Source of the DNA: an uncultured Phycisphaerales bacterium
GTDB lineage: Bacteria > Planctomycetota > Phycisphaerae > UBA1845 > CAIVHJ01
Length of the DNA: 38,208 nucleotides
Assembly: GCA_903905665.1 (NCBI GenBank)
Contig: CAIVHJ010000330.1
Span: forward strand, 1-38,208
Direction of reading: 5' to 3'
The translations under genes were made by a program, and so were the position numbers. The notes beneath the pieces are model-generated. The model saw nothing but the letters and a program-made list of their open reading frames with translations, did not search any database and was not told the DNA's origin. Numbering within the stretch: position 1 is the stretch's first letter; every line of letters starts with the position of its first letter. Shown piece by piece: positions 377 through 25,154 of this stretch.

Positions 377-1525
377 TTAGAACTCCCCGAAGAAAAAGGC
401 ATTTGACGCCGCCGCGGTCCCACTTGTCGTTTCCGATCCGATGCTCGTAAAGGTAGTCGGCGATGACTGGTTGTTGTATTCCGTCTTGATCCAGTCGGCG
501 GAACGGGCGATCCCACTGGAAATTCTGATTTCATCCATAATTCCAGAAGTATCAGAATTGCCTCCGCCAATGATGGTGGCCGCCGTTGGATCGGTGATCG
601 CCGCGGGTGGGTAATAGCCGCCAACATTGGTGCCAGCCACGGCATCCATGTAGATTTGCAGTCTGTTTGTCGATGTCTGAGAACCATCAAAAGTCACGAC
701 AAAATAATGCCATGCCGTTCCTCGCGGGTCGGCGTATGTGGCGTACTGTCCAAAAGTGGCTAAGTCTCCAACCCACACACTCATTGGATAGGTGTAATAA
801 TGCCCCATGCTCATTCCGTCGTTGAACGCTCCATGGCCGATCCACGACGCCAAAGAAATAGTCGTACCGTTAGGGTTCATCCAAAAAGAATAGGTGAAGG
901 CCGTTGTCGGGCTGGTGGTTGGAGAATCAGGGATCGAAATTGAATCGTCGGTGTCCGTAAACGATAACGCACCTCTTATCTGACCGGTGACTTGCTTTCC
1001 CGAACTCCAAGTCCCGACGGAGGTGCCGTTATTGATGCCCACCGAATCGTATACCGTTTGGCCGGCGCCAGTTAAGGTCTCATCAAAATGCCATACGCCG
1101 CCATATTTGTTGCTCCACGTCGCCGTCGAGATCCCTTGGTAGGTCGTGACTCCGGCGTCCCCGTAGCACATATAGAGCGTCGTGTCAGTCGTAGACGAGA
1201 TGGTCGGCACTTTGACCCACACACTCATGGTTGACACCCCGACGTTCGATACGGTTTCGGTGTCCCATTTGAGAAGGTATGAGCAGGTATTGTCCTTCGT
1301 GGAAAAGACCAGATCGAAGCCCGTCGAGTTAAGACGCCCGCCTTGCGCTGTCGTGGTGGTGAGTGCGATGTTGAACGTCGATATCAGGACGGGGAAGTCC
1401 GTGTACGTGGCGGCTTGCGTGGACACCTGGGCGGCGTTAACCGTGATGGTGCGGTAATATCCGTAACTCGCTCCCGCGTAGTTGGAAGTGAGAAGCAGAC
1501 CCGCTATCAGGAACGCCCGTTTCAT
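377..1525 (-). CDS. DUF2341 + LamG/concanavalin-A-like lectin domain protein with signal-peptide-like N-terminus (receptor-binding or glycan-binding candidate)
   Basis: N-terminus is MKRAFLIAGLLLTSNYAGAS. DUF2341-like stretch: YRTITVNAAQV...FPVLIS...WDTE...VWVKVP...LYMCYGD. LamG-like stretch: GVWHFDE...GALSFTD...FTYSFWM...HYFVVTFDG...LQIYMD. Typical C-terminal signature: DEIRISSGIARSADWIKTEYNNQ. Confidence 0.85.
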   Translation of the reverse strand: MKRAFLIAGLLLTSNYAGASYGYYRTITVNAAQVSTQAATYTDFPVLISTFNIALTTTTAQGGRLNSTGFDLVFSTKDNTCSYLLKWDTETVSNVGVSTMSVWVKVPTISSTTDTTLYMCYGDAGVTTYQGISTATWSNKYGGVWHFDETLTGAGQTVYDSVGINNGTSVGTWSSGKQVTGQIRGALSFTDTDDSISIPDSPTTSPTTAFTYSFWMNPNGTTISLASWIGHGAFNDGMSMGHYYTYPMSVWVGDLATFGQYATYADPRGTAWHYFVVTFDGSQTSTNRLQIYMDAVAGTNVGGYYPPAAITDPTAATIIGGGNSDTSGIMDEIRISSGIARSADWIKTEYNNQSSPTTFTSIGSETTSGTAAASNAFFFGEF

Positions 1526-1843: not shown

Positions 1844-4800
1844 TTATGGTGTAAAGTTCTGCGTTCCGCTGGCCGAGCAGTAGTACACTCCGTCAGAGGC
1901 ATATTTACAAACAACGAAATCGACTTTGCTCGCCGTCACCGTGATCGTTGGCGCTGTGCCGCCGGACCAATGCACTGCCGCGGGCCATGTACAGGCAAAC
2001 GACCCCGCTCCCGTCAGAATCCGTAGCGTCAGAGTTCCGGGGTGAGCCGGGGCGATGAAGTTGAAGGCGGTGTTCGCCGTCAACGTCACCTTCTGCATGT
2101 TCCCGTTCAGCCACGTGATCGTGCTGATGGCGACGTAAGCTCCGTTGGCGTACTCGTCCATGCCGATTGTGGCCGAGGAAACGTAGATGGCGGTGGATTG
2201 GATGATGCCGTTGAACGTCGCTGATCCCCGATTGACCTGGAACTGGCCGGAGTCGATAAACACGCCGTAGTTCTGCGTGGCACCACTGGCCGAGAACCAA
2301 CCGCCGTATCCGACGGGGCCGGAGGCGATGTTTTCACCTTTTACTCCCGATGAATTACCAGTCACTCCTCCATATACGTATCCATTGGCCCCAACAGCGG
2401 TGAATGTTGTTCCAGCTCCTCCATTGACAGTTCCGTTGGTTCCGACAACAGTTGATCCTACAACTGAATTTGAAAGTGAGAAAGCACCCATAACAGCGCC
2501 GGAAGTAATATCGTTTTGAGTAGCGGATATAAGTCTCCCTGTTAAAGTCCCAGTTACAGAAAGGTTGCTGGCTGTTGCACTCGATACCGTCATAGTCGAT
2601 ATCACCGTTGCGGCATTGGCGTAGAATGTCGCTCCTGAGAAGATGGCGTTAGACGAAACCGTTATGTTCGGGGTTGTGATGCTCCCTGCGTACACTCCGT
2701 AGGTGAACGTCGAAGGGGACGGACTGGCCCACGTTTCCTGTCCAGTCCATGTCTGGGTAGAAGCCAATCCAGCGCTCGTAATCGTCGTCCAGGTAGGATT
2801 AGCGACTGGCCCCCCAGAGGTCAGGAATTGCCCCGCTGTTCCTACTGTCCCAAGCCCGCCAAGCCCGATCGTTGTGGAAATGATGATCGTGCTACTGTGT
2901 GTACGTTGGCCGGAGATTGTTTGAGTCGATGTAATGAACGCCGCCGTAGATACCATATTCCCCGCCGGGAGCGTCCCGATAACGCCAGTCGATAGGCTGA
3001 TCTTGTCGACACCAAAAGCGCCCGTTGTGTTGTTGTATTGAAGGGGGACACTCACCGTAAACGAGGCGTAATTGACCTTTCCGTTGGCGAGCGTAAAAAG
3101 TGTTCCAGTTGAGATGCCAACGGCGGTCATGGAAGAAGTCAGGTTCGTTACGTTTCCGGAAATCGTCCCAGTCGCCACTCCAACCGCCGTCATAGATGAC
3201 GACAAGGCCGCTAAACTGACGGTATTCCCTTGTAGAGTAACAGACGACGCGAGAAGGCTCATGTAGGCCGTTGCCGATCCCGTCAAAGCCCCAGCGAATT
3301 GCGATGAATTGAAGTTGACGACTGCCGTCGGACTTGAAACGGTCCCAGTAAATCCTGTGCTGGTTCCGGTAGCAACGGCGAGAGTTGACGCGCCGCCGCT
3401 TGATGCGGTCGTCCAAGTAGGAACGGCCCCAGCCCCGCCAGATGTCAAGACCTGGCCATTGACACCCGCCGATCCAGACAAGAGAACGCCGGACGAAATG
3501 CCGACATTCCCGTTGAACGTGGAACTGGAAGTAACCGTCAGGGTGGAACCTAGTATGGTCGCTCCTTCAACATAAAGACCATTTGCAGGAGCCGTATGAC
3601 GGGATGACGCGAACATCCCACTTCCGAAGACGTTTAGTTTGTTGTCAATGGATTGTGAACCAAGAGAGAGTTGTCCTGCTGAATTAAGATACATCGCATC
3701 GCCACCGAGCGTTGCAAAAACCATCGGCGCTTCAGATGTTGCGCTAGTGTAATTCCATACTCGGATCGATCCATATTGTGATCCGGAAACTTTAAACAAC
3801 ATCCCACCCTCAAGCGGTCCAGCGACATCTGCGTTATTTACAGTCAGTGGATAGGTCGTGACACTTGAAAATGTCCCTGTGGAAGCGGTTACTCCCTTAG
3901 CCAGGTTGAACGTGACGGTTGCGGGTTCGACAGCGTAGCCACCACCGCCCCCTGTCGTGTTGTTGACAGTCGTAGACGACCAAAGCATCGTCATGCCCTG
4001 CGAAATCGCGTCGTCGCAGAAACCTTGAATCGTGGTGTCGCTTCCGTAATTTCCGGCGGCGTAGACCTTGGTCATCTTGAGACCCTTCTTGATGGCGACA
4101 TGATCTACGGTGATTTGCGTGTTGGAATTGCCAGTCGAAGGGACCAACATATAAGGCGTCTGGTTTCCGTCAGCCGATATCAACTGGAACTCTTGAATGT
4201 CCTGAGCCGCTATGTGGACAGATGCAAAGGTGACGTTTTGCGGGACTGTGAACCCCGACATTCCAGGGGAATAGTTCCAAACCGCTTGGATAGCCGCACC
4301 GGACGAAAACATGATCTCGTAACCGGGAACGGGACTGAGGGTAGTCCAAGAACGCCCGTTACTGAAATAGGTACAAGCTCCAGACTGATAGCCGGTCAAG
4401 AAACTCCCTGAAGTGCGCTGTTCCCCGCCCGTTTGGTTATCGCCCACGCGCCAGAGTCCAAGGGCAATCCATCCGTTTGTGCCGAAAGCGGTGTTTAGCT
4501 TGGAGATGTTCGACACAATAGGAACCGTCGTAGACACGACAAACACGAAATCGGTCGAGTTGGCCTGTGATTTGACGCAATACCCTTCATAGCTCGTATT
4601 GATGGTCGTAGTCCCAACATTAACACCGCCCTGCACCGTTCCCGTCAAAGAGGCCGTCATGGACGAGAAGGCTGTCACGTGAGAAGTCGTGTTGTCTGTT
4701 CGCATGTCCCCGTCAGGAAATAAGCAAGCGACTGTTGCCGATCCGTTATAGGAGTTTGACGATAGAACGAGGCTTGTACTGCTGGTGTAGACCATGACGG

Positions 4801-5209
4801 GGCGCTGATAGGTAAGGGAAGTTGTTGAAAGAGTTATAGAGGAACCGCCGCTTCCTCCTGTGACTGTTGACCAATAGGGAGCGCCCGCCGCGCCGCTAGA
4901 GGTATAAACCTGTCCGACTGTGCCTGGTGCTACCCCAGATATGATGGTAGTTGAAACGCCAGAATAGTACGGCATCGAGTATTGCGTAGCGACGTTTATC
5001 GTACCGCCAGCTCCACCACCTCCACCAGATCCCGCAGTTGTCTGTGTTGACCCATCGGCCCAATAAAGTGCCTTTATATGGGCTTTCTGATTAGTCTGTC
5101 CAGCATTTGTGCTGACGTTTATGACATAGTTTCCAGCCGGCGGCCCTGGGACCGCACAGGTAAACGAAGCCAGGCCTAAGAGCGCCGCTATTTTAAAGAG
5201 CCTATTCAC
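1844..5209 (-). CDS. Large Gly/Ser/Thr-rich tail-fibre-like protein, 1121 aa, with signal-peptide-like N-terminus
   Basis: GTG start. N-terminus is MNRLFKIAALLGLASFTCAV. The motif G-Q-x-[LY]-T-S-x-G-x(4,5)-P-x-W-[ST]-T occurs three times (GQVYTSSGAAGAPYWST, GQVLTSGGAGAVPTWTT, GQFLTSGGPVANPTWTT), as in many phage fibre proteins. Poly-G linkers are present. It is the largest gene of the late arm. Confidence 0.8.
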   Translation of the reverse strand: MNRLFKIAALLGLASFTCAVPGPPAGNYVINVSTNAGQTNQKAHIKALYWADGSTQTTAGSGGGGGAGGTINVATQYSMPYYSGVSTTIISGVAPGTVGQVYTSSGAAGAPYWSTVTGGSGGSSITLSTTSLTYQRPVMVYTSSTSLVLSSNSYNGSATVACLFPDGDMRTDNTTSHVTAFSSMTASLTGTVQGGVNVGTTTINTSYEGYCVKSQANSTDFVFVVSTTVPIVSNISKLNTAFGTNGWIALGLWRVGDNQTGGEQRTSGSFLTGYQSGACTYFSNGRSWTTLSPVPGYEIMFSSGAAIQAVWNYSPGMSGFTVPQNVTFASVHIAAQDIQEFQLISADGNQTPYMLVPSTGNSNTQITVDHVAIKKGLKMTKVYAAGNYGSDTTIQGFCDDAISQGMTMLWSSTTVNNTTGGGGGYAVEPATVTFNLAKGVTASTGTFSSVTTYPLTVNNADVAGPLEGGMLFKVSGSQYGSIRVWNYTSATSEAPMVFATLGGDAMYLNSAGQLSLGSQSIDNKLNVFGSGMFASSRHTAPANGLYVEGATILGSTLTVTSSSTFNGNVGISSGVLLSGSAGVNGQVLTSGGAGAVPTWTTASSGGASTLAVATGTSTGFTGTVSSPTAVVNFNSSQFAGALTGSATAYMSLLASSVTLQGNTVSLAALSSSMTAVGVATGTISGNVTNLTSSMTAVGISTGTLFTLANGKVNYASFTVSVPLQYNNTTGAFGVDKISLSTGVIGTLPAGNMVSTAAFITSTQTISGQRTHSSTIIISTTIGLGGLGTVGTAGQFLTSGGPVANPTWTTITSAGLASTQTWTGQETWASPSPSTFTYGVYAGSITTPNITVSSNAIFSGATFYANAATVISTMTVSSATASNLSVTGTLTGRLISATQNDITSGAVMGAFSLSNSVVGSTVVGTNGTVNGGAGTTFTAVGANGYVYGGVTGNSSGVKGENIASGPVGYGGWFSASGATQNYGVFIDSGQFQVNRGSATFNGIIQSTAIYVSSATIGMDEYANGAYVAISTITWLNGNMQKVTLTANTAFNFIAPAHPGTLTLRILTGAGSFACTWPAAVHWSGGTAPTITVTASKVDFVVCKYASDGVYYCSASGTQNFTP

Positions 5210-9503: not shown

Positions 9504-9819
9504 TTGTACCACCTACCTTTTGGTGGAGATCTTCCACCTTGATTATTGGTTTTAAGAATCGGATATAGTCGCCAATAATTTCTCTTGGTAGACATCCGAA
9601 CTTGACTAACAGCCTGTGAAAATCCTTGTGGCCTAGTTCGCTATCCGTAAACCATCCATGCAATTTCTTGGAAAAGATATACCGTTCAATATCGTTTAAG
9701 TCTTTTATAAGCCGTTTCTGTAGCCGGCCATGCTTGTTATCTACCCATCGGCAGAACACCCACTTTGATGGATAGAGAGTCGCTTCAAGAATGCCATCGT
9801 TGAAGATTGTTGTATTCAT
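9484..9819 (-). CDS. Hypothetical protein, 111 aa, AT-rich relative to neighbours (fibre chaperone or moron)
   Basis: ATG 9819 (MNTTIFNDG...) overlaps the stop of the tail-collar gene as TGATG. Three 60-nt samples I counted gave 32-47% GC, against roughly 47-58% in flanking genes. Lys/Phe/Ile-rich, unlike the surrounding S/T/G-rich proteins. Confidence 0.65.
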   Translation of the reverse strand: MNTTIFNDGILEATLYPSKWVFCRWVDNKHGRLQKRLIKDLNDIERYIFSKKLHGWFTDSELGHKDFHRLLVKFGCLPREIIGDYIRFLKPIIKVEDLHQKVGGTNVRIAA

Positions 9820-10682
9820 CAGGTCTTGATTATGAACCCGACGCAAGCCCACGGTTGCATGTTGTTGTGGGCTCCATCACCATTTGTATCTGCTACCGTT
9901 AAACCTGTCTTAGCTGTAGCAAGAGTTATTCCAGTCACTTTTGTTTCGGCCATGCCCTGCGCGCCACTCTGCGCCGAAGAAGATAGGGCCCCCGCGTATC
10001 TATGGGTTCCAGAACCATCGTTATCGTGGCCCTGTACGCTGTGATAATGTCCAGGGTCCGTTAAACTGTGGGCGTGGGCAGATTCTGTTACGTTGTGAGT
10101 TTGTGACGGGAGTTCTGTAGTCGTAAGTAGATGCGTTTCTTCTCCCCCCGTATCACCTACTGCCCTAGCAGTAAGCCCTGTTCCCGTTCCCGATCCAAGG
10201 ATTGATTTCCCGCGTAAGTCTGGAACATTAAAATGAGTCCCATCAACATTTCCCCATGTCGTTCCAATCGCTATAAAAAGGTCTGGATAATCTGCTCGCA
10301 AATAACTCGTTCCATCACACGCAAGAAATCCAGTTGGTACAGTAGAGCTACCGAATGCCCGGATTTCTCCCGTGATAAAAACACTACTAAGGTTGTTCCC
10401 ATTGGCCGCCGGCTGATACCAATAGGTTTTCCCAAGAATCTGAGCGATGACATACCGAAGTCGTTCCAATTCACCCGCAATCGAAGTCGCTTTGCTTAGG
10501 ACGCTCCCAGGATAAGGAGCCGTTTGCAGTTGAGCATCAGCATCAGTGTCGGAATGACCTCCAGCTCCTGATGCGTCTAAGAGAGAAGCGATGTTGGCAA
10601 ATTCTCCATTCCATAGTGCTGAGGCAATGGTTTGATTTGCGACAACCGTTTGAAGTGGTATCGTTCCTGTGGTTCCGCTCAT
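9819..10682 (-). CDS. Tail fibre protein with phage Tail-Collar domain (MdpB-like)
   Basis: GEIRAFGSSTVPTGFLACDGTSYLRADYPDLFIAIGTTWGNVDGTHFNVPDLRGKSILGSGTG...GGEETHLLTTTELPSQTH matches the Collar-domain consensus (PF07484). The C-terminal HNNMQPWACVGFIIK is also typical. Confidence 0.9.
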   Translation of the reverse strand: MSGTTGTIPLQTVVANQTIASALWNGEFANIASLLDASGAGGHSDTDADAQLQTAPYPGSVLSKATSIAGELERLRYVIAQILGKTYWYQPAANGNNLSSVFITGEIRAFGSSTVPTGFLACDGTSYLRADYPDLFIAIGTTWGNVDGTHFNVPDLRGKSILGSGTGTGLTARAVGDTGGEETHLLTTTELPSQTHNVTESAHAHSLTDPGHYHSVQGHDNDGSGTHRYAGALSSSAQSGAQGMAETKVTGITLATAKTGLTVADTNGDGAHNNMQPWACVGFIIKT

Positions 10683-12241: not shown

Positions 12242-12531
12242 TAGGAGTCTCTCACCGGCTTGCCTTTAACGAATATGTCTTCCTCTGCGTCAGTTCCTTT
12301 TCCCCACGTTGACGATGGAACCTCTCGATTTGCGAAACCCGTATTCCCAGTTGTCGTCCTCTTTCTCCAAAAGAAGAAAAAGTCAGTCTCAGCGGCTATC
12401 CCCGAATACAGATTCAGAATATGTGCGCGAGCGCCCGCCGATATAGACCCCGATGGTATTGGAGCTCCGGTTCCCATTGGACCTTTACCGAAGTCTATGG
12501 CTGATCGGCGGCGCTCGGCTGTATTAATCAA
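12241..12531 (-). CDS. Hypothetical virion-module protein, 96 aa
   Basis: Translationally coupled on both sides (ATGA at 12528-12531, TAATG at 12241). Lies within the structural operon. Confidence 0.6.
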   Translation of the reverse strand: MINTAERRRSAIDFGKGPMGTGAPIPSGSISAGARAHILNLYSGIAAETDFFFFWRKRTTTGNTGFANREVPSSTWGKGTDAEEDIFVKGKPVRDS

Positions 12532-13457
12532 GTCAGTTGCCCTTTTGTGTAGGTTGTCCCATCATCGCTCAATGTTGCCGTTGCGATAACCGTCCCTGCA
12601 TTATTTTTGATGCTCTCTTCGTTTGAAGTCGCCGTATGCTCATTGCGGAGACTCATGTAAGAGAGCATAAGAGCCTGGTAGATTGTCGGGGTTGAATCTG
12701 GCACGGAAACAAGTTCCGTCATGCTATCGCTACTGAGGGCTGTTCTAATCTGCGTCAATACCGATGCCAGAGCCGATGATCCCAGCGCATTGACTGTCCC
12801 GATGGTCACTCCCGTCTGACTGGCTCCAAGATTGACTGTCTGTAACGTCGGATCGAAATTACTGATGGACCCAGACACAGGTAAAGCCGCTATGATCGCT
12901 TTCAGATCAACACCAGACGTTCCGGCAGTAACGTGCCCCGCCATAGCCTCGTCCCATACCGCCGCGGCGATCGTAGCTGCCGACGGACCAGATGATCCAC
13001 CATCGACAATGGCTTCAAGAGAATCGGTTGACTGATCAAATGTCTGACCTGAGTTCTTGTTCATAATCAGATCCAAGAAGCTCCCAATAGTCGCCGGCAC
13101 TCCTGCCGCTGTCACCTTTGCCAATTTATCGAGTAGGTACGTTTTGAGGACGGCTCCAATACCCTGTTCCTCGCTTGTCCCATCAAAATAGATGGCGTTC
13201 CCGCCTATATTTGGATCGCCATAAGTCGTCGAAGCATAGTAGATGTAGTCGTAGTACCCAGCGGTGATTGTGGCAGGAAACATTGCCTTGTAGTACCCAG
13301 TCGTCCCATCTTCCGTTAGAAGGTTAAGATAGGTAGCCCAATTCGCTGAATTGAATGCTTCAAACGATGACCCATTCCAGTATTGGCCGGATGCGTCATG
13401 GATGACAGCGTAGATTGTTTGTCCTGACTGAGAGGTGCATTTCAGATAGGCGGCCAT
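12528..13457 (-). CDS. Hypothetical virion structural protein, 309 aa
   Basis: Long ORF in the structural operon. N-terminal beta-rich part (GQYWNGSSFEAFNSANWATY...) and an Ala/Ser/Thr-rich C-terminal part. Confidence 0.7.
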   Translation of the reverse strand: MAAYLKCTSQSGQTIYAVIHDASGQYWNGSSFEAFNSANWATYLNLLTEDGTTGYYKAMFPATITAGYYDYIYYASTTYGDPNIGGNAIYFDGTSEEQGIGAVLKTYLLDKLAKVTAAGVPATIGSFLDLIMNKNSGQTFDQSTDSLEAIVDGGSSGPSAATIAAAVWDEAMAGHVTAGTSGVDLKAIIAALPVSGSISNFDPTLQTVNLGASQTGVTIGTVNALGSSALASVLTQIRTALSSDSMTELVSVPDSTPTIYQALMLSYMSLRNEHTATSNEESIKNNAGTVIATATLSDDGTTYTKGQLT

Positions 13458-13458
13458 A

Positions 13459-14355
13459 TTAGTAGTCCGTTACCACTTGAGCAAATTCGTGGAGATCAGT
13501 CCCATATTGCGCTGTTACAACCAATTTCTGTACCTCTTGCATCCATAATCCCCATTCCGTAGGGCCTCTCGTATCGTCATTGAGCATCATGTGTTTTGCT
13601 TTAATCCCTTGAATCCAAAAATTGCGCCATTCCAGATACAGCCGGCTCATCAGAGCAGAATTGAGGTCCGTTTTCATCAGATTGCCGTAGTAGAAGAATT
13701 TCATAGCATAGGTCTGATTATTATCTGGAGCGCAATCCAAAATAAACTCGTCATAGTCCTCATCTCCCATCGGATAGGCTTTGGATGGCCTTCCAACAAG
13801 CGATGGGCGAGCTAATCTAAACTCTTCAACGACATGCTCAAATTTAATCGGGTTTTTTTGGTCGATAATCATATAGCCTGACCCAGAAGCGGGAGCAACC
13901 CTAAACCCTGGTGTAACCGTAAGCGTGATCGTTCCTGAATTGTTCGCCAAAGCAATAATTTGAGAGGCCGAAGCAATCCCTGTCCCCGATGTGATGACAA
14001 TTTCCTTTCCAATGACATCAGAAAACCCTTGTGTTGACCCCGAAGCCATGATAAGCGTTGTTGTAGATCCACCTTGGGCTGTTCCTATGACTGACCCAAA
14101 CATAATTTGAGCGCTCATGTCACTTGAAAAGTCCGTTGGGCATGAATACCGGCTTTGTCCAGGGACAAGGATTCCATAAGCGAAGGTTTGCATGATTTTT
14201 GGTTGTCGGCAAGCCTTCCAAACCTCATTTTTGAGTTGTTCCATGACCTCATTCTGGTATCGAAGCGTCGTCGCAGAGTCAGGATGGCTCTCGTTGGCCT
14301 GTTGTAGCCCTTCAGTTACGATACTAGCGAGCGTTGGCAGCGTTGGCGACGCCAT
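13459..14355 (-). CDS. Hypothetical virion protein, 298 aa (head-tail adaptor candidate by position)
   Basis: First gene after the GT/MT cassette downstream of the capsid gene. Its start overlaps the GT 3' end by 32 nt. No named motif recognised. Confidence 0.65.
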   Translation of the reverse strand: MASPTLPTLASIVTEGLQQANESHPDSATTLRYQNEVMEQLKNEVWKACRQPKIMQTFAYGILVPGQSRYSCPTDFSSDMSAQIMFGSVIGTAQGGSTTTLIMASGSTQGFSDVIGKEIVITSGTGIASASQIIALANNSGTITLTVTPGFRVAPASGSGYMIIDQKNPIKFEHVVEEFRLARPSLVGRPSKAYPMGDEDYDEFILDCAPDNNQTYAMKFFYYGNLMKTDLNSALMSRLYLEWRNFWIQGIKAKHMMLNDDTRGPTEWGLWMQEVQKLVVTAQYGTDLHEFAQVVTDY

Positions 14356-15454
14356 TTAAGACCTCCTGATACGCTTCGACCCACATGGGCCACATTTTAT
14401 CGCAGTCAAAATGCCTTTCAACCGTCTGCCGAGCCGCGATTCCCATGCGGCGCCGTAACTGATCGTCCTGTGTCATTTGATTAAGGGCAAGAAGCCACCC
14501 TGATGGCGAATTGGCTTCGACAAACATCCCGTTATCCGCCACCAAGTCCATCATCTCCGCATAGGGGGAGCAGAATGAACTTACACTTGGAACCTCTAGG
14601 GCCGCCATTTCTAACCATTTGATTGAGCTCTTGCAATTATTGAAATCCGAATCCACCAATGGGATAACGGCGAAGTCCAAATCAAGGATTGCCGAAACGA
14701 ATGGATAGGCTGGCGTTGGGCACCACCCTCGGTATTCAATACGATTCGGGTCTATGCCTTCGAGTGTCCCTTCAAATTTCTGCCCTAAGATCACGAGCGT
14801 GACGTTAGGATTGACCCGCATAAACTCTGGAAGCACCTGGGCGAGGATCTTCCAGTCCTCGAAATGGCTATAGCCTCCAGACCATCCAACTCGAATGCCT
14901 TTGTGGGTTTGGAAAGGGAGTTTCTGCCACAATGACAGGTCAATGCAATTTGGCAGCACCTTGATGTTGGGATTAAACTCACTAAAAACCTTCGCCAGTA
15001 TGGGCGTCGTTGTAGTAACCATGTCAGCTACAGACATGGCCTTTCTTGCCCGTTCAAGGCCGGCTTTGTTCTTAGCAAGATCGATATTCTTTCCATCCGT
15101 CCAGATATCCAGGCTCCCGCCTTTATAGGGGTGACTGTAATTCTCTGTTCCAAAATCCTTGTAGTGTGGCGATAATGGGTCTATTCGGAATAGATTGTCG
15201 TCCCAATCCACGATGACTTTCTTTCCGAGTTTTTTAAACCCCTCAATAGCATTGCAGAACTTCTCATCAAATACGCGGGGAGTCACGCAGATATCAGCCC
15301 ATAAAAGTTTTAAGGCAATATCATCATCGCTATCACCCTTTTCGACGTGCTTGACCTCAAAAGTCTTGTCGTGAAGAGCAGCGGTCTGTAGCGGTTGTGC
15401 GAGGCGATACCATCCGCACCCGCCATTATCTCTGAGGAAGTAGAGGACTTTCAT
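14324..15454 (-). CDS. Glycosyltransferase (GT-B fold, GT1/GT4-like), 376 aa
   Basis: Start MKVLYFLRDNGGCGWYRLAQP is ATGA-coupled to the methyltransferase stop and has GGAGG upstream. The C-terminal half has a GT-B signature (VGWSGG..., ...CKSSIKWLEMAALEVPSVSS, an E-x7-E-like motif). Confidence 0.8.
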   Translation of the reverse strand: MKVLYFLRDNGGCGWYRLAQPLQTAALHDKTFEVKHVEKGDSDDDIALKLLWADICVTPRVFDEKFCNAIEGFKKLGKKVIVDWDDNLFRIDPLSPHYKDFGTENYSHPYKGGSLDIWTDGKNIDLAKNKAGLERARKAMSVADMVTTTTPILAKVFSEFNPNIKVLPNCIDLSLWQKLPFQTHKGIRVGWSGGYSHFEDWKILAQVLPEFMRVNPNVTLVILGQKFEGTLEGIDPNRIEYRGWCPTPAYPFVSAILDLDFAVIPLVDSDFNNCKSSIKWLEMAALEVPSVSSFCSPYAEMMDLVADNGMFVEANSPSGWLLALNQMTQDDQLRRRMGIAARQTVERHFDCDKMWPMWVEAYQEVLNGVANAANAR

Positions 15455-16134
15455 AGCGTCCCCTCCATCATCCACTCTGTCATGTTCGTGTTCACGTACG
15501 GAATAACGGGATGACGCTGGCCTGGGACTCGGTTAGGTGTTCGTCCAGGCATATCAGAAATGTTTAATTGGCCCTTTGCGGCCTCTTTAGCGAACCAAGA
15601 CCGTTTATACCACCAGCGATACCCATCCCACCGGGATTCCTGCTGTTCAGTTTCATCAAGAGGATGGATCGAAACGTAGCATTTCCCGGTCGTTTTCAAT
15701 GCTTTTGACAATGCTTTGCATAAATCTTGGATATCATCCGGGTGGACATGAACCGTAACAGAATTGCAAAGGATGTAGTCGTACTGGTCTGCTACTTCAA
15801 ATGAATCCATCAATTGAAGAATGGGAATGTGCTTTGACTTTAGTCTAACGCACTCCAACATCGCTTCTTTTAGAAGACCAACAGAAATATCTGACCCGTT
15901 AAAATTCCCGTCTTCAAGATAATCAACAAGTCGTACTGTCCCTCGGAGGGCTCCGCATCCGTAGTCCAAGAAGGAATGGGTAGGTCGCAGACCTTGTGCA
16001 ATCATAAAATCATGCTGCATCCTCGCTTCATATCCGACGTTTCCTCCAGAGAAAACCGCGGCTTCCTCAGAGGTTCCATTAAACGCCCATCGTTTCTGAT
16101 AATCGGGCCAATGATTAATAGCTACAGCGGTCAC
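15451..16134 (-). CDS. Class I SAM-dependent methyltransferase, 227 aa
   Basis: Motif I is FLDYGCGALRG. An acidic post-I residue (NGSDIS) and the motif IV-like YDYILCNSV fit the Rossmann-fold pattern. Confidence 0.8.
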   Translation of the reverse strand: MTAVAINHWPDYQKRWAFNGTSEEAAVFSGGNVGYEARMQHDFMIAQGLRPTHSFLDYGCGALRGTVRLVDYLEDGNFNGSDISVGLLKEAMLECVRLKSKHIPILQLMDSFEVADQYDYILCNSVTVHVHPDDIQDLCKALSKALKTTGKCYVSIHPLDETEQQESRWDGYRWWYKRSWFAKEAAKGQLNISDMPGRTPNRVPGQRHPVIPYVNTNMTEWMMEGTL

Positions 16135-20832: not shown

Positions 20833-22554
20833 TTAGTACCCCGCCTCAATATCCGCTGGCACAAATTCTTCTTTGGTCCCCTGTTCATGCGGATACCATC
20901 CCAGTCGTGACTGAAAAATATACCGCATCGCCGCGTGATGATCGTGCTTCCCTTCCTGAATGGCATCCTTTGGTCCTCGCACGTCTTCGTTTGAAAACAT
21001 ATCCCTCTGTAACGTCCTCATCGACTGGATCAAGAGCTGATTCTCCGGTCTATCGAGAATGAAAAACATTTCGTCTTTCAGCATTTGTCGGATGATGTCC
21101 ACTCCAGCGAGAATCGACCCCTTATATGAATCGGCTTTCCGCAATCCGGGCACTGCGTTGTCGCCATGAGTAAGAATTTTCCAGGCGTTGATGTTATCGA
21201 ACGCCGTCCTGTCCGAGTCGGCGTGAGGGTCGCATTTTCCAAAACCATATCGGTACGTTCGTAGCATCGCATGAATATCTTCTTTCACCTCTCGGAGATT
21301 CTTGTCCCCCAAGTAACATCGGTCGATGTATTTTCTCTCATCCCGATCCACCGCCACAACCACCGCGGCGGTCGCTTTGACTTCGTGCGGGTCAAGACCA
21401 AGGTAAGCCACGTAAAGTAAAAAAGGGCACATAGGATCATGGTAGGTGTCGGCTGGGTTTGCGTTTGCATCAGTCCGTACTCCAGCGCAATGGCAATCCA
21501 GATATTCACCATCACCCAGCCCCAGCGCGGACGGAGGTATAACGTGAATCCGTCTTTTGAAATACGTCCCGTACACGAGGCCCGACAGCGAGATCCATTC
21601 GCCCAGGAGCCGCATTCGCAACTCATCGTAGTTTTTGATGTTTCCACAAATTTCCCTCAATGATTTTAAATTCGCCGCCGGGTTTGATATCGAGCAGAGC
21701 TGAAACCACCGGACGGCGTTTCCGTGCTCGTCAGCGTCTTTATTCCAGAGCCGATCATATACCCACGACAACCCGTTGGTCGGCGTCATACCAAACGCGA
21801 TGTCGAGTTTATCGGCGGTCGCAAATCGGATCAAGTTTTCCTCAAAAATCTTCTCTCTCGGCTCCTCGTCAAATCGAACCCGGTCCAAGGGTGGTCCTTG
21901 GAATGTCCCGACATCAGCTTCGTTCGTCATCAGTTCAATGGTGGCGCAAATTTGCTTTTCTTCCGGGTGAACGAGCGTCAACGTCATCTTTTCAGCAGAC
22001 CAACTTTTTTCCCATTTCCCGTCGATCAAATAATTCTTTGGCACCCAATATCGGATCGCTGGTAAGTTATGGTTTAAGACCCCATGCGTATAGTCCTTGC
22101 AGACGACACGGATGCGGTTAAACTTCTTCGTCGGCAATTTCGATTCTGGATAAATCCCCTTCAACGATGGCGGGATAATCCGACACGCTTTAATCAAGTC
22201 CTCGATGGTCGTCGAAACCGTCTTAGAACTCTGGTTTCCTCCCGCGACTCCGATGATGTTCGCCGTGCAGGAGTGAACGTCAATCGCGGAGTCAAGGTGG
22301 GCGGGGATATCTTCGGGTTTAAGGAACTCTTCGAGGAACACACGCATGGCCGGCGTCACCGTACTGTTGGTGGGCTGATAGAAATAAAACGGCTCCGCCT
22401 GTCTGATTTGACGGAGCTCTTCTAAGCGGGCGGCGATATACTCGCGTTCCGTTTCCGCTGCTCTTAAAAGATCCTCTCGGGTTTTAAGTTTACGCGGGCG
22501 ACCCGTTGACCGCATGAGCGAGCGGTCGGGTTTCGTTGCGAGTGCGGGCGCCAT
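20833..22554 (-). CDS. terL: Terminase large subunit
   Basis: Walker A-like VAGGNQSSKT and Walker B-like LDRVRFDEEP. A TPTNG coupling-type motif is present. The C-terminal nuclease half has AAVVVAVD and later acidic residues. 573 aa. Confidence 0.85.
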   Translation of the reverse strand: MAPALATKPDRSLMRSTGRPRKLKTREDLLRAAETEREYIAARLEELRQIRQAEPFYFYQPTNSTVTPAMRVFLEEFLKPEDIPAHLDSAIDVHSCTANIIGVAGGNQSSKTVSTTIEDLIKACRIIPPSLKGIYPESKLPTKKFNRIRVVCKDYTHGVLNHNLPAIRYWVPKNYLIDGKWEKSWSAEKMTLTLVHPEEKQICATIELMTNEADVGTFQGPPLDRVRFDEEPREKIFEENLIRFATADKLDIAFGMTPTNGLSWVYDRLWNKDADEHGNAVRWFQLCSISNPAANLKSLREICGNIKNYDELRMRLLGEWISLSGLVYGTYFKRRIHVIPPSALGLGDGEYLDCHCAGVRTDANANPADTYHDPMCPFLLYVAYLGLDPHEVKATAAVVVAVDRDERKYIDRCYLGDKNLREVKEDIHAMLRTYRYGFGKCDPHADSDRTAFDNINAWKILTHGDNAVPGLRKADSYKGSILAGVDIIRQMLKDEMFFILDRPENQLLIQSMRTLQRDMFSNEDVRGPKDAIQEGKHDHHAAMRYIFQSRLGWYPHEQGTKEEFVPADIEAGY

Positions 22555-22805
22555 TAATAAACCTGGCTGTCCCCATCCTCGTCTCCATCCGACCCACCCT
22601 TACGCATCTTCTGATCAAAGTCCGTCCCTTTGGCGGGAGCATAATTAACAGGCCCCACTCCCGGCTGGTTTAGTTTCGCCAGATCAATCTCGATCGCCTT
22701 GGTTCTCTCGGTGTTCGATGCCGGGTACTCTTTTCGTTCGGGGATATTAAACCCGCGGCCTCGGCCCTCAATAAATGGGGACCCCTGCTTTTTATCTTTT
22801 TCCAT
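22554..22805 (-). CDS. Hypothetical protein, 83 aa, directly upstream of and coupled to terL
   Basis: ATG 22805 (MEKDKKQGSPF...) follows GGAGAGGAGA. Its stop overlaps the terL ATG (TAATG). Acidic C-terminus DGDEDGDSQVY. Could be a very small terminase accessory or small subunit. Confidence 0.55.
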   Translation of the reverse strand: MEKDKKQGSPFIEGRGRGFNIPERKEYPASNTERTKAIEIDLAKLNQPGVGPVNYAPAKGTDFDQKMRKGGSDGDEDGDSQVY

Positions 22806-22806
22806 A

Positions 22807-24546
22807 TTATCTCCTCTCCCCGTGCATGATGGCTTTGATCGACGCCGCTCCCGCTGACGGTGGTACAACCCTTAACTGTAAAAACCGCCAGTTCAAGTTA
22901 CCGAAGTCGACAAACGTGCTGGACGACGGATACACGAACGAGGTGACGGTATACGTCGATCCCGTCTGAACGAAGTTCGTCCCATCGTTTCCATACCAGA
23001 ATCCGAACGCCGGAGATCCTGCGATAGCAGGGACTGTCAGCGTATAGGTGTCCGTTGTGGTCTTCGTCGCAGACGATACCCACGTCATAGGGACTCCCGC
23101 CACTGCCATGGTCGATGTCAGTGCCAATTGGATGCTGTTGGCCGTTATAGGGATGACGTAGTACGTTACTCCCTGACCAAGCATAACTGCCGTCCCTCCG
23201 GTCGTTGCCGTCGAATAATACAAGGGCGTTGTCCCAGCCGCCGTCGAAAGGTACACTCCCAACCCCAAAGGGAGTCCGTGACTGGCGATCCCGATCGTCT
23301 GACCCGACAACGTAAACGAGCTGTTGGTGCCTCCGTACATCGATCCCGTCGCTACGCCCGTGATGCTACTAGACGACGTATATGGGCTGATCGTCATCCC
23401 GTTCTGCGTCGACGTATACACCACATACGTTGTCGTTGACCCCACCGCCGTCGATGTCGCGTAAATAACGCCTGTGGTTGCCACGCAAGTCGATGTCACG
23501 ACCCCCGTAAACGATGAATTAATCGCCTGATACAGCGACGTGCAGGTGCTCCCGGTACTCGTCACCGGATACCAATGCGTATTGGCTTTTAGACACGTCC
23601 CGTTAATACAGAGCTGCGCGTTATCGGCGCCGCCGGTCATCATGGCCGCTGACACTGTGATGGACGAAATACTCGACACCAAAGACAGTGTATTGCCAGC
23701 CGACCCCGTAAACCCTGCCGTCGTATAAATAACCGCGTACGTGTTGGTCGCCATGACGGGCATCCCGACAGCCGTGTTGGTCCCGATGAGCAGGTTGATG
23801 GCTTTCATTATGTTCTGCGCCGTAGTCGTTGTGTCGGCTCCCACCTGCCACTCATATCCCGCCCGCAGATACGCCCCCGCCACCGTTACCGTCGCCGGAG
23901 CGACTCCGCTCGCAAACGTCGCTGACCCAATCGCCGCCTTACTTGACGATGTGATCGCCCAGGCGTTCTGAATCGTTCCCGAACTGATCGCTGAGATCGT
24001 TACGCTCGCGCCCGATACCGTCGACGTAAGCTGTCCCGATGTCGCCGTCGACACCAAAAGTGCCCCCAAGTTTGCCGCTGTGCTCGTGGACGAAAACCCC
24101 TGCGCGACGTTCCCCCCAATCACAAACGGACTCCCCGTGTAAAACGGCGGACCCGTGATCGTTAAAACTGTCCCCGCCACGTTCGACGAAATTAATATCG
24201 ACGTGCTCGCCACCACCCCACCTAAACTCTGCGTCGTCAGTACCGTAATATACCCCGTCGCCGCCGCCGTCGAGAGTACCGCCGGGTTTACAATCGTGAT
24301 CGTCGCCGTCGAGGCTCTCCCGTCATTAAACGTCACGTTCGATAACGCGTCCGACGATACAATAACCTGCGCCGAGATGTAGTCGACATCCCGCGAACTC
24401 ATGTCTAACGTATACGTCATCGTCGCGCCACTCACTCCTACCGCCGCCGCCGCATCCGTCATTGGCGCTTCCATCGTCGTGTTGGAACCGTACAAAGGAA
24501 CTCCTATAAATAAAAATATCGCCGCTACCTGCGCTGCCCGTTTCAT
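22807..24546 (-). CDS. Ser/Thr/Ala/Gly-rich repeat protein, 579 aa, with signal-peptide-like N-terminus
   Basis: GGGAGG lies 5 nt before ATG 24546 (MKRAAQVAAIFLFIGVPLYGS...). Three ~75-aa internal modules share the pattern aromatic-x-W/G...T-[AST]-x-N-[IL]...A-I-N...V-x-A-T...G...GN/ST. GC is higher than in flanking genes (58% in one 60-nt sample). Confidence 0.75.
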   Translation of the reverse strand: MKRAAQVAAIFLFIGVPLYGSNTTMEAPMTDAAAAVGVSGATMTYTLDMSSRDVDYISAQVIVSSDALSNVTFNDGRASTATITIVNPAVLSTAAATGYITVLTTQSLGGVVASTSILISSNVAGTVLTITGPPFYTGSPFVIGGNVAQGFSSTSTAANLGALLVSTATSGQLTSTVSGASVTISAISSGTIQNAWAITSSSKAAIGSATFASGVAPATVTVAGAYLRAGYEWQVGADTTTTAQNIMKAINLLIGTNTAVGMPVMATNTYAVIYTTAGFTGSAGNTLSLVSSISSITVSAAMMTGGADNAQLCINGTCLKANTHWYPVTSTGSTCTSLYQAINSSFTGVVTSTCVATTGVIYATSTAVGSTTTYVVYTSTQNGMTISPYTSSSSITGVATGSMYGGTNSSFTLSGQTIGIASHGLPLGLGVYLSTAAGTTPLYYSTATTGGTAVMLGQGVTYYVIPITANSIQLALTSTMAVAGVPMTWVSSATKTTTDTYTLTVPAIAGSPAFGFWYGNDGTNFVQTGSTYTVTSFVYPSSSTFVDFGNLNWRFLQLRVVPPSAGAASIKAIMHGERR

Positions 24547-24701
24547 CGGTCCCTCCCACACGTCGGACATTTACCAGGATTCCCCTCGGCGTTCACGGCA
24601 TGAGACGCCTCCTCTGACGCCTCAATACGCTCGCCGTCTACCTGCTCCTTCGCTTCGTCCCTCTTGATCCCCTTATCCGCCTTACCCGTTCGCTTGTCCA
24701 T
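24543..24701 (-). CDS. Small ORF, 52 aa, Lys/Glu-rich with C-terminal CPTCG (not in ORF track)
   Basis: GGGAGG lies 9 nt upstream of ATG 24701. Translation: MDKRTGKADKGIKRDEAKEQVDGERIEASEEASHAVNAEGNPGKCPTCGRDR. Its TGA overlaps the ATG of the 579-aa gene (ATGA). Confidence 0.45.
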   Translation of the reverse strand: MDKRTGKADKGIKRDEAKEQVDGERIEASEEASHAVNAEGNPGKCPTCGRDR

Positions 24702-24867: not shown

Positions 24868-25154
24868 TGCAGATGCTCCGGTGCGACAACCTCGTATGTA
24901 AATTGGCTTTTTGTTTTTTTCGGCCTAACGGGGGTAGGGGTAGTAGTCCCCATAGTGCCGGGTGCCCCCCCTCCCCCATCCTCCGGCGTCGAAGCTGCAG
25001 CCCTCTCCCCCTTCAATGCGTAGTACCTCTCGACTAGCGCGCGCGTACCGGCCACCGTTCCAGGCCAGGGATCTACCCCTGCAGGGCATAGGCCCAATGT
25101 CACGCGCTTGTGGTTTACCGTCGAGCTCTTCTGATAATCTACATTATATTTCAT
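24864..25154 (-). CDS. Hypothetical protein, 96 aa
   Basis: ATGA-coupled to the HTH gene upstream. Contains a Gly/Thr/Pro-rich linker (DGGGGAPGTMGTTTPTPVRP) encoded by a G5-A-G7 run on the coding strand. Confidence 0.6.
   Translation of the reverse strand: MKYNVDYQKSSTVNHKRVTLGLCPAGVDPWPGTVAGTRALVERYYALKGERAAASTPEDGGGGAPGTMGTTTPTPVRPKKTKSQFTYEVVAPEHLH

Follow-up and report, generated by a model that had tools for sequence, protein, structure and literature searches.

A family of modular, Ser/Thr-rich phage proteins with a predicted Sec signal, encoded among the late genes of tailed phages

Tailed-phage particles assemble in the cytoplasm, and the phage proteins that leave it are generally regarded as falling into three kinds: lysis factors, small exclusion proteins and the cargo of lysogenic conversion. 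T5 Llp, phi80/N15 Cor, T4 Spackle and TP-J34 Ltp are phage-encoded proteins with signal peptides whose place of action is the envelope, where they counter incoming phage or renewed adsorption, and the lambda morons bor and lom encode exported products from sites near the terminase and cos or near tail-fibre genes. Hoc-type decorations, such as T4 Hoc with its Ig-like domains, are built of small modules repeated in variable number together with a conserved end domain, and are presumed to mediate weak adhesion to glycans; the beta-barrel domain of endosialidase (K1F gp17) carries a sialic-acid binding site. No Sec-exported fibre is known to us from a tailed phage, and our search of the literature on signal peptides on tail fibres returned no direct precedent. 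In phages of Porphyromonas gingivalis, genes of unknown function carry host-type Sec signals, and a role in altering the outer membrane of the host has been suggested for them (PMC10367356).

The locus described here shares single features with several of these systems. A gene at 22807..24546 on the minus strand of a 38,208-nucleotide stretch of DNA (the window), delimited by its reading frame and public gene calls, encodes a 579-residue, Ser/Thr-rich modular protein that is predicted to be exported. Its likeness to Llp, Cor, Spackle and Ltp is one of logic only, with no relationship in sequence or fold; these exclusion factors have masses of just 7-20 kDa, are lipoproteins for the most part and are produced early in infection or by lysogens, whereas the protein studied here is large and coupled to late genes. 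Bor is a lipoprotein and Lom an outer-membrane beta-barrel, and morons have a promoter and terminator of their own, of which none was found for this gene. The variable module number and conserved end domain of Hoc-type decorations recur here (a likeness drawn from general knowledge), but Hoc has an Ig fold and no signal peptide, and it attaches to capsids while still in the cytoplasm, whereas the modules of our protein are alpha/beta in the AlphaFold2 (AF2) model and the protein has no Pfam match to Ig or Big domains. The signal-bearing proteins of the P. gingivalis phages (PMC10367356) differ from it in host and in protein, and the likeness is that of a host-type signal on a phage gene. The low-complexity Ser repeats and adjacent glycosyltransferase of serine-rich-repeat adhesins were also sought and are absent, the glycosyltransferase of this operon lying 7 kb off.

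The best fold match of the 579-residue protein in BFVD (2.6e-17) is to a protein of Rhodobacter phage RcTitan. In gp17 of this phage, a tail-tube protein with an N-terminal extension, a module of about 85 residues with an alpha/beta fold is homologous to the modules of our protein (hhalign against gp17 residues 36-248: 97%, E = 3.6e-11, 34% identity, 197 columns), and RcTitan gp13 has one copy of it; the sequence similarity is below tblastn detection. Both RcTitan proteins lack the signal peptide, N-terminal beta-sandwich, D5 domain and C-terminal jelly roll found here, and the gp17 modules are joined to a Phage_tube_2 domain. The repeat modules are of a kind found on the tail tubes, and on the tailspike-like proteins, of other phages. 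The BFVD matches to baseplate-wedge, baseplate-J and major-tail proteins reflect similarity at the level of modules only. No known fibre, collar or tailspike family was matched in Pfam, PHROGs or NCBIfam, and the protein found no match in these libraries or in PADLOC, nor did any of its domains in Pfam. A Foldseek search of the PDB with the whole model returned nothing at or below 1e-3, and the family HMM found only chance antibody matches among PDB sequences.

Gene boundaries, operon position and composition

The 579-residue gene lies in the late operon of a podophage of SU10 type, known from freshwater sediment and not cultivated. The reading frame runs from 24546 to 22807 on the minus strand, with its stop codon at 22807-22809; the open reading frame listing gives a longer version, 22807..24570 (587 residues). 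Of the two starts, that at 24546 (MKRAAQ...) is the better candidate on sequence grounds, since a GGGAGGG Shine-Dalgarno sequence sits 4 nt 5' of the start codon, the ATG overlaps the TGA stop of an upstream 52-residue ORF (ATGA), public gene calls use this start, and the N-termini of homologues, MK(R/K), agree with it. The 52-residue ORF (24543..24701, minus strand) ends in NPGKCPTCGRDR before its stop, and a 44-residue ORF upstream of the homologue in L005 is related to it and has the same C-terminal motif. Downstream, an 83-residue ORF (MEKDKKQGSPF...; 22554..22805, minus strand) starts 1 nt past the stop of the 579-residue gene and overlaps the start of the large terminase subunit gene terL (TAATG; 20833..22554, minus strand; phrog_2 match). 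The 83-residue ORF is kept in L001, L005 and L074 and absent beside homologues in other phage types; we rejected it as a travelling partner, its conservation being confined to the SU10-like lineage.

Translational coupling links the gene by ATGA to the 52-residue ORF on one side and by TAA-N-ATG to the 83-residue ORF, and through it terL, on the other. A consensus scan restricted to sigma-70-type sites revealed nothing promoter-like from the head of the operon up to the gene, and nothing terminator-like in the short gaps that flank it. The gene is a translated member of the packaging and structural operon, and neither a promoter nor a terminator of its own was found. None of the RNA runs searched for the sequence of the gene contain it, and reads and contigs inspected for microdiversity in the C-terminal domain gave identical sequences, at low coverage.

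Threonine (16.4%), serine (12.4%), alanine (12.4%) and glycine (10.2%) dominate the protein, Ser and Thr together making up 29% of it, and only 30 residues (5%) are charged (D, E, K or R). The GC content of the gene is 0.568, against about 0.47-0.55 in neighbouring genes; this excess is due to amino-acid composition (GC2 0.58) and also to GC3, which at 0.68 exceeds that of every other operon gene measured (the remaining structural genes span 0.39-0.59) and sets the gene apart from its surroundings, as is typical of a moron. Antisense ORFs are present across the region and are an expected by-product of this composition. The preliminary description had placed a Ser/Thr-rich protein of this length upstream of terL, leaving its strand unstated, and had remarked on the raised GC and the antisense ORFs; each of these points holds.

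The predicted N-terminal signal and the domain architecture

Residues 1-20 (MKRAAQVAAIFLFIGVPLYG; 24487..24546, minus strand) form a predicted signal peptide whose n-, h- and c-regions are conserved in relatives, with a predicted signal peptidase I cut at G20/S21. The layout is MKR, with charges at K2 and R3, a 12-residue hydrophobic core (VAAIFLFIGVPL) and L-Y-G before the serine at the cut. The charged n-region, short h-region and small residues at -3 and -1 expected of Sec/signal peptidase I substrates were all found. We applied a home-made, and crude, rule for the n-, h- and c-regions, including charge, to 150 full-length relatives; 144 of these (about 96%) pass it, as the earlier suggestion of a Sec-like N-terminus would lead one to expect, and the six that fail have mis-called or truncated starts. 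Among the 144, the residue at -1 is A, G or S in 127 (A 75, G 27, S 25), with T in 12 and C in 5. The hydrophobic core has a median length of 15 residues (IQR 14-17), more like that of a signal peptide than of a transmembrane anchor, and reaches at least 19 in 20 of the 150 relatives. The passing relatives are less than 50% identical to one another, and conservation is seen in the mature N-terminus but not in the sequence of the signal.

In the AF2 model, which is otherwise confident (pLDDT 85.7), residues 1-20 are the sole low-confidence part (pLDDT about 50, and below 50 at residues 1-3 and 13-20) and lie outside the fold. No lipobox is present, and with no Cys in residues 1-30 the signal is not of the lipoprotein (signal peptidase II) type; some relatives carry ...LFLC..., which is not a canonical lipobox. 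C-terminal sorting signals (T9SS CTD, PEP-CTERM, LPXTG and the like) gave no match in NCBIfam or Pfam, and the protein ends in ...IMHGERR. An internal start at M25 or M29, which would remove the signal peptide, was rejected for want of a convincing Shine-Dalgarno sequence. The N-terminus looks like a cleavable Sec signal that is conserved across the family, and its conservation in about 96% of relatives implies that it is under selection. An export signal on a late protein had been called unexpected from this one sequence; at the level of the family the point is stronger.

As modelled, the mature protein is a string of beads: a beta-sandwich, three alpha/beta modules, a 'TYYVI' unit and a jelly roll. 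The N-terminal beta-sandwich (residues 22-131; 24154..24483, minus strand) is defined by AF2 and by homologues and holds the conserved motifs SAQV.YSS, TF.DG..ST and LSTAAATG. The three modules, M1 (residues 132-217; 23896..24153), M2 (residues 218-309; 23620..23895) and M3 (residues 310-397; 23356..23619), all on the minus strand, are delimited by AF2 and sequence profiles; M1, which has the alpha/beta fold of a 'decoration' module, is homologous to the RcTitan gp17 N-terminus, M2 is likewise supported by RcTitan homology, and M3 holds a cysteine pair in CINGTC. In profile-profile comparison of alignment slices the modules match one another with E values of 2e-18, 2e-11 and 3e-16, and all other domain pairs give E > 0.05. 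Within the single sequence, Smith-Waterman alignment is significant only for M2 and M3 (z = 5), and profiles are needed for the rest. The three modules proposed earlier at about 75 residues are therefore real but longer, at 86-92 residues each, and the structure prediction that had been called for gives the same pattern three times (beta-hairpin, 15-residue helix, beta-beta, short helix, beta).

Domain D5 (residues 398-500; 23047..23355, minus strand) contains one 'HG.P.G..V...//..TYYVIP...N.IQLA.TS..AVAG' unit, which is repeated in tandem in the phage proteins P0174, P0175 and P0176, all without a signal peptide, and in giant bacterial proteins. The C-terminal jelly-roll-like domain (residues 501-579; 22810..23046, minus strand) is defined by AF2, with weak hints from fold and Pfam searches, and lies within the part of the protein that homologues match most consistently. 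Homologues range from 437 to 1045 residues and differ by whole modules. The number of Cys residues in the mature region is even in 72 of 102 relatives, with recurrent spacings of 5, 7 and 16, and the Ser and Thr residues of the 579-residue protein are located in confidently folded, beta-rich domains and not in disordered repeats.

The C-terminal domains weakly resemble carbohydrate-binding types. The jelly-roll-like domain has weak Foldseek matches to CBM16, Eph-LBD and F5/8-C, and Pfam gave weak F5/8-type-C hints, though none for the 579-residue protein itself; when modelled separately, the domain found no relative in the PDB. The beta-barrel of endosialidase (K1F gp17; Pfam End_beta_barrel, PF12195) overlaps the 'HG..G..V...TYYVI' unit of D5 in relatives, with matches that are weak and all below the Pfam gathering score (E = 4.6e-7 in P0175; 2 of 24 family members, best 7e-6). 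The D5 motif aligns to endoNF residues 429-465, with a direct hhalign comparison that is insignificant (E = 0.022). The 579-residue protein itself has no PF12195 match and lacks the propeller/catalytic domain of endosialidase, and any relationship of D5 to the endosialidase barrel is weak.

Homologues and their phage backbones

The family comprises 495 cluster representatives (clustered at 50% identity), 343 of them at E <= 1e-10. No member has been named, neither Pfam nor PHROGs holds a model for the family, and a profile search of a database of 5.8 billion proteins returned relatives named only 'hypothetical protein'. In tblastn searches of INPHARED with the whole protein, with M2 and M3, or with a central family member we found either nothing or a chance match of 52 residues, and blastn with the terL-portal DNA found nothing there; as far as sequence searches reach, no family member is present in about 50,000 deposited phage genomes. 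In GTDB genomes, a set of patterns for close relatives recovered no locus, and a set of motifs recovered solely D5-type repeats in giant bacterial proteins.

The synteny of the homologues, a survey of which had been recommended, is consistent throughout: every member falls within a late or structural block, either ahead of terL or behind the portal gene or a collar-domain tail fibre. No fewer than four different phage backbones carry the gene at a module boundary, namely ahead of terL, behind the portal, behind baseplate and fibre genes, and ahead of the lysis cassette. The arrangement before terL is conserved in six related podophage genomes. In L004 the homologue lies between the portal and capsid genes, and in L075 its neighbours match the PHROGs 'tail fiber' and 'virion structural protein'. 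It directly follows a tail-fibre gene in L003 and the P0020 contig, both from myoviruses, and in phage contig L062. The position was earlier judged atypical for a fibre, which is correct for the lineage of the window and its six related podophages, but not for L003, L062, L075 and the P0020 contig, in which the homologue occupies a tail-fibre-like slot. One homologue is present in an integrated prophage of a Solibacteraceae genome.

The collar-domain tail fibre of the window (9819..10682, minus strand), which has no signal peptide, has homologues directly upstream of those of the 579-residue protein in L003 and L062. The same collar fibre and a '309-like' protein (12528..13457 in the window) accompany members of the family in podoviruses and myoviruses alike, an association that suggests a docking partner in common. 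Members often have large Ser/Thr-rich neighbours that bear Sec or lipoprotein signals too; the window holds three such proteins and L003 five. In the window these include a 382-residue DUF2341 (LamG-like) protein (377..1525, minus strand), identified by domain match and signal rule, with a Sec signal cut between ...NYAGA and SYG, and, at the far end of the operon, a 1121-residue protein with a signal- or lipobox-like N-terminus (1844..5209, minus strand), of which a homologous segment occurs in a 788-residue protein of L003 with a lipoprotein signal. Relatives with the same modules and no signal peptide are also found (P0160, P0172 and P0174-P0176), which indicates that phages make cytoplasmic versions when needed. 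The operon further encodes a methyltransferase (15451..16134) and a GT-B, GT1-family glycosyltransferase (14324..15475), 7 kb from the 579-residue gene and beside the capsid gene; both are conserved in related podophages, and neither was seen in the examined sequence of the myovirus and other backbones that carry homologues.

Possible sites of action of the protein

Given that the export signal is conserved and that tailed phages are assembled in the cytoplasm, the 579-residue protein and its approximately 500 uncharacterised relatives probably act outside the cytoplasm, to judge from their sequences. We tentatively favour, at a little under an even chance, a late-expressed, Sec-exported and glycan-binding accessory adhesin that acts on the host envelope; a secreted or surface protein of this kind was one of three options offered in the preliminary description, and it is the best fit of the three, short of proof. 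The precursor would pass through SecYEG and be cut by signal peptidase I after G20, and the mature protein of 559 residues would fold in the oxidising periplasm or envelope, which fits the paired cysteines in relatives. Its C-terminal domains may bind a glycan of the envelope or exopolysaccharide, with the variable number of modules serving as a spacer. The mature protein could then cover or block structures in the envelope of the infected cell, so that neither other phages nor the progeny that this cell itself releases on lysis can adsorb or enter; the logic would be that of T5 Llp, phi80 Cor and T4 Spackle, with a binding protein derived from a fibre in their place. This masking role, which is drawn by analogy, is the weakest step of the scheme, and we regard it as doubtful. 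The protein may be one of an exported suite in this phage, with the products of 377..1525 and 1844..5209. The sites at module boundaries in varied backbones and the highest GC3 speak for the accessory character of the gene. Against an adhesin, Sec reaches only the periplasm in a diderm host, with no evident route to the surface; the known exclusion proteins are small and early or lysogenic, whereas this one is large and late, and PADLOC returned no match; and the modules are homologous to modules displayed on virions (RcTitan gp17 and gp13).

This last relationship leads to the alternative that the protein is an appendage of the virion, decorating the head or tail or serving as an accessory fibre, which would either mature in the periplasm (through disulfides and possibly glycosylation) and dock at lysis, or be assembled in the cytoplasm from an unexported fraction. 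The homology to the N-terminal modules of the RcTitan tail tube (hhalign 97%, E 4e-11) and to gp13 is joined here by the BFVD matches to baseplate and major-tail proteins, by the Hoc-like combination of conserved ends and variable spacer modules, and by the invariable location within late or structural blocks; homologues that directly follow a tail-fibre gene (L003, the P0020 contig and L062), together with the co-occurrence with collar fibre and '309-like' protein across backbones, point to the virion through guilt by association. What makes this alternative somewhat unlikely is that assembly is cytoplasmic and an exported fibre lacks a known precedent, that a signal kept in about 96% of relatives is under selection, and that relatives without a signal demonstrate that cytoplasmic versions get made, while M25 and M29 offer no Shine-Dalgarno sequence for an unexported form. 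The earlier proposal of a head fibre or decoration held by an N-terminal anchor finds support in the virion-type modules and tail-fibre slots, but not in its anchor, the N-terminus being signal-like. A broader form of the same idea, in which phages Sec-export a whole suite of appendages (the 579-, 1121- and 382-residue proteins and five consecutive proteins of L003), mature them in the periplasm and add them to particles at or after lysis, we consider improbable.

Three further readings carry less weight. A moron-type surface adhesin expressed from the prophage, altering host adhesion, biofilm or exopolysaccharide, with its place in the late operon incidental, would account for the homologue in the Solibacteraceae prophage, the deviant GC3 and the adhesin-like design, and sites upstream of the terminase or downstream of tail fibres are classic for morons (lambda bor and lom; general knowledge). 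This reading is quite unlikely, as the scan found no promoter-like site ahead of the gene and no terminator-like site in the flanking gaps, and as the gene is coupled through ATGA and TAA-N-ATG to its neighbours and keeps its arrangement in six related podophages. We give a similarly low standing to the view, the last of the three earlier options, that the protein is chiefly a substrate of the phage's own methyltransferase and GT-B enzyme, a heavily O-glycosylated shield or adhesin in either location: its 29% Ser/Thr and the two conserved genes in the operon would suit such a role, but the Ser and Thr residues lie in folded beta-rich domains (pLDDT 85.7), the enzymes adjoin the capsid gene and are unseen in the examined sequence of the other backbones with homologues, and a cytoplasmic glycosyltransferase must act before export. 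That the gene is not real, or that its repeats and signal arose by chance in a biased reading frame, might be supposed from the GC-rich region and its many antisense ORFs; the 495 homologous clusters (343 at E <= 1e-10), the confident AF2 model, the significant similarity of the modules at profile level and the translational coupling rule this out in practice, leaving it a negligible chance.

Taken together, these data describe a large uncharacterised family of big, fibre-like proteins, glycan-binding in type, which are produced together with the structural proteins and nevertheless bear a conserved signal for export. The data also define two reusable display modules of phages that are missing from current domain libraries, the alpha/beta module of about 85 residues and the 'TYYVI' unit. 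Were the proteins parts of the virion, the assembly of tailed-phage particles would include an unrecognised extracytoplasmic step that is without known precedent. If instead they truly act on the envelope, phages of poorly cultured bacteria of soil and sediment (Acidobacteriota and others) would reshape or mask the surface of their hosts on a scale beyond that of the model phages.

The gene in its phage genome

Judged by its gene matches, the window represents an uncultivated podophage with a capsid and portal like those of SU10. Its major capsid protein is of the SU10 type (E 2e-83), with no more than 42% identity to those of deposited phages, and further genes match the SU10 portal, a tail-collar fibre, a VapE-like primase-helicase, a YqaJ exonuclease and, weakly, the SU10 adaptor. 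The sequence is found in freshwater-sediment metagenomes, and a related prophage (L001) lies within a Solibacteraceae (Acidobacteriota) chromosome, where the flanking PPIase shows 94% identity to a Solibacteraceae MAG.

The open reading frame of the Ser/Thr-rich protein runs from 24570 to 22807 on the minus strand. The true start is at 24546 (MKRAAQ..., 579 aa), since four features agree on it: a Shine-Dalgarno sequence (GGGAGGG) 4 nt 5' of it, an ATGA shared with the TGA stop of a 52-aa ORF upstream, the start chosen in public annotation of three other contigs, and homologue N-termini that begin with MK(R/K) at the same point. The in-frame extension 5' of this start, MSDVWEGP, matches the beginning of a separate 62-aa ORF in the related phage locus L005, which suggests that the window lineage has undergone a deletion. 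The upstream ORF (24543-24701, minus strand) has a conserved C-terminal motif, NPGKCPTCGRDR, as in a related 44-aa ORF of L005; the L005 stretch compared is 9704-9999.

An 83-aa ORF starts 1 nt past the stop of the gene, and its own stop overlaps the terL start (TAATG). A consensus scan of the stretch from the operon start to the gene gave no promoter-like site, and the short gaps on either side of the gene showed none resembling a terminator. This coupling, together with the lack of such sites of its own, indicates that the protein is a product of the late operon, which encodes in order a 167-aa HTH protein, products of 96 and 52 aa, the 579-residue protein, the 83-aa product, TerL, the portal and further proteins. 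No recognisable small terminase was found in the window; the candidates are two proteins encoded on the minus strand and conserved in the related podophages, namely the 83-aa one with a GRGRGF motif, whose ORF (22554-22805) immediately precedes terL, and the HTH protein (25151-25654) that opens the operon.

Elsewhere in the structural operon, the adaptor and the capsid-proximal 102-aa gene are separated by a pair of genes, for a SAM-dependent methyltransferase (15451..16134, minus strand) and a GT-B/GT1-family glycosyltransferase (14324..15475, minus strand). The same spot holds this pair, or the glycosyltransferase alone, in L005, L006, L064, L065 and L074, a placement that suggests glycosylation of the virion, perhaps of the capsid. 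The early region encodes a pentapeptide-repeat protein (36131-37069, plus strand; Pfam Pentapeptide_2, E 5e-17), whose NSGxx units are encoded by about 30 copies of a 15-nt tandem repeat (36364-36813) and which may be of the DNA-mimic or anti-restriction type.

Modular architecture and relatives

The protein is rich in Thr (16.4%), Ser (12.4%), Ala (12.4%) and Gly (10.2%), with only 30 charged residues. The preliminary description had proposed three internal modules and a raised GC content, and both proposals hold. Within the single sequence only the second and third modules (M2 and M3) form a significant pair; profiles sliced from a 29-sequence alignment relate M1/M2 at E 2e-18, M1/M3 at 2e-11 and M2/M3 at 3e-16, with all remaining domain pairs at E > 0.05. 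The modules occupy residues 132-217, 218-309 and 310-397, and the AF2 model (mean pLDDT 85.7) shows one pattern three times: beta-hairpin, 15-residue helix, two strands, short helix and strands. It flanks the modules with a beta-sandwich at the N-terminus (24-131) and, on the C-terminal side, with the beta domain D5 (398-500) and then a jelly roll (501-579). Amino-acid composition and codon choice both contribute to the raised GC (GC2 0.58; GC3 0.68, the top value among the operon genes measured).

A HMMER search run exhaustively against 1.84 billion cluster representatives found 495 relatives at E <= 1e-3, of which 343 reach E <= 1e-10; relatives span 437-1045 aa and differ by whole modules. 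None is named beyond 'hypothetical protein', a precomputed Pfam domain occurs only in the distant, partial relative P0175, and no member was found among the deposited phage genomes of INPHARED. Because all library searches were negative, the protein is placed outside every described family.

Likenesses were found for its individual domains. RcTitan (L066, KR935213) gp17 has two N-terminal modules homologous to the alpha/beta module (97% probability, E 3.6e-11) and a C-terminal Phage_tube_2 tail-tube domain; a paper on RcTitan-type phages names gp17 the tail tube. RcTitan gp13, in the head-gene region, has one copy of the module, and both proteins, unlike the 579-residue protein, lack a signal peptide. 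As gp13 (189 aa; 8559-9128) shows 52% identity to the first 160 residues of gp17 (10535-12748), the same two display modules exist as a protein of their own as well as in fusion with the tube. The fold matches in BFVD are gp17 (2.6e-17), followed by module-bearing baseplate-wedge, baseplate-J and major-tail proteins.

The D5 unit (HG..G..V...TYYVI..D.N.I.LA.TS.GA.AG) occurs in tandem in three phage proteins without signal peptides (P0174, P0175 and P0176), in a phage-tail-like ORF of an Opitutus contig, and in open frames of more than 2000-5400 aa in GTDB genomes of Planctomycetota, Pelomonas lactea and Sedimentisphaerales (L067-L073), there as a version of about 65 aa (HG..TG..V.Y...G..I.GL..G.TYYVI.VD.N.I.LA). 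In the proteins scanned, Pfam did not cover this unit beyond sub-threshold matches to the endosialidase beta-barrel (PF12195, End_beta_barrel) in P0175 and two of 24 family members, and direct comparison with the K1F endosialidase was not significant. The jelly roll gave weak hints of F5/8-type-C, CBM16 and Eph-LBD folds and no solid PDB match. Overall, the protein is an assembly of modules used by phages and bacteria on exposed, glycan-contacting structures.

Predicted signal peptide and signal-bearing neighbours

A simple n/h/c-region test was applied to 150 full-length relatives, each representing one cluster at 50% identity. It was passed by 144, and the other six have gene calls that are truncated or start in the wrong place. 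Of the 144, 127 have A, G or S at -1; the median predicted cut is at position 20, and the hydrophobic core, at a median of 15 residues, falls short of membrane-anchor length. The signal region is conserved in character and not in residues, while residues are conserved just after it (DGPMTD among close relatives, LVNE.GLAYN..Y across a wider set), and AF2 leaves residues 1-20 outside the packed fold. The protein has no lipobox and matched none of the C-terminal sorting-signal models. Cysteine number in the mature parts is even in 72 of 102 relatives, which are not independent sequences, with recurrent spacings of 5, 7 and 16; this pattern suits folding in an oxidising compartment. Taken together, these sequence features make it likely that the protein is exported.

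In six SU10-like genomes (the window, L001, L005/L006, L064, L065 and L074) the gene is followed directly by small ORF(s), terL and portal. Elsewhere the homologue lies after the portal (L004), after the genes for the baseplate wedge and for a collar-domain fibre (L003, a myovirus contig, and the contig of P0020), between a collar fibre and a lysis cassette (L062), or ahead of genes assigned by PHROGs as 'tail fiber', 'virion structural' and 'minor tail' (L075).

Sec or lipoprotein signals are also present on neighbouring large Ser/Thr-rich proteins. The window has two more such proteins and L003 four more; L004 has three and L062 two (runs at L003 9961-21646, L004 5485-16812 and L062 855-7253). 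Those of the window lie at the far end of the late operon, on the minus strand: a 382-aa DUF2341/LamG-like protein (377-1525; signal peptide …NYAGA|SYG) and a 1121-aa protein (1844-5209) with a lipobox-like N-terminus, VNRLFKIAALLGLASFTC…, which has a segment in common with a lipoprotein-signal protein adjoining the L003 homologue. In L003 a run of five large Ser/Thr-rich proteins with such signals comes after the baseplate and collar fibre, one with the signal MKTLFRGFALVGLLAAVGC|ADG. The window, L003 and L062 combine the homologue with a collar fibre, a big Ser/Thr-rich signal-bearing protein and a '309-like' protein. The last adjoins the adaptor in the window (309 aa; 12528-13457, minus strand) and lies in the fibre regions of L003 (14048-14683) and L062 (5379-5972) as proteins of 197-211 aa; these share an N-terminal domain of about 90 aa (…YA.IH...G..WNG..FEA.N..NW..Y…) that has no family assignment.

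Possible functions

The protein resembles a hybrid of two known kinds, modular virion display proteins (Hoc-like; the RcTitan gp17 modules) and exported phage accessory proteins (Llp, Cor, Spackle, Bor). We tentatively propose, at somewhat short of an even chance, that it is an envelope-acting accessory adhesin. We favour this because the signal is under selection, because versions of the same modules without a signal peptide exist for cytoplasmic use, because the gene occupies boundaries between modules in several distinct backbones and departs in codon composition from the rest of the operon, and because the exported phage proteins known to date act in lysis control or exclusion. Such an adhesin would work outside the cytoplasm, with receptor masking, anti-readsorption or exclusion as its most plausible specific function, the weakest link in this proposal.

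The main rival, a virion decoration or fibre, would fit the homologues placed next to fibre genes and the homology of the modules to virion-displayed ones. It would require that the protein join the particles when the cell lyses or later, or that part of it escape export, and it would be new biology; we consider it rather unlikely. A lysogenic-conversion adhesin and a glycosylation substrate are less well supported than either the envelope-acting adhesin or the virion component. That the protein marks something categorically new, Sec-routed virion appendages, seems to us improbable.
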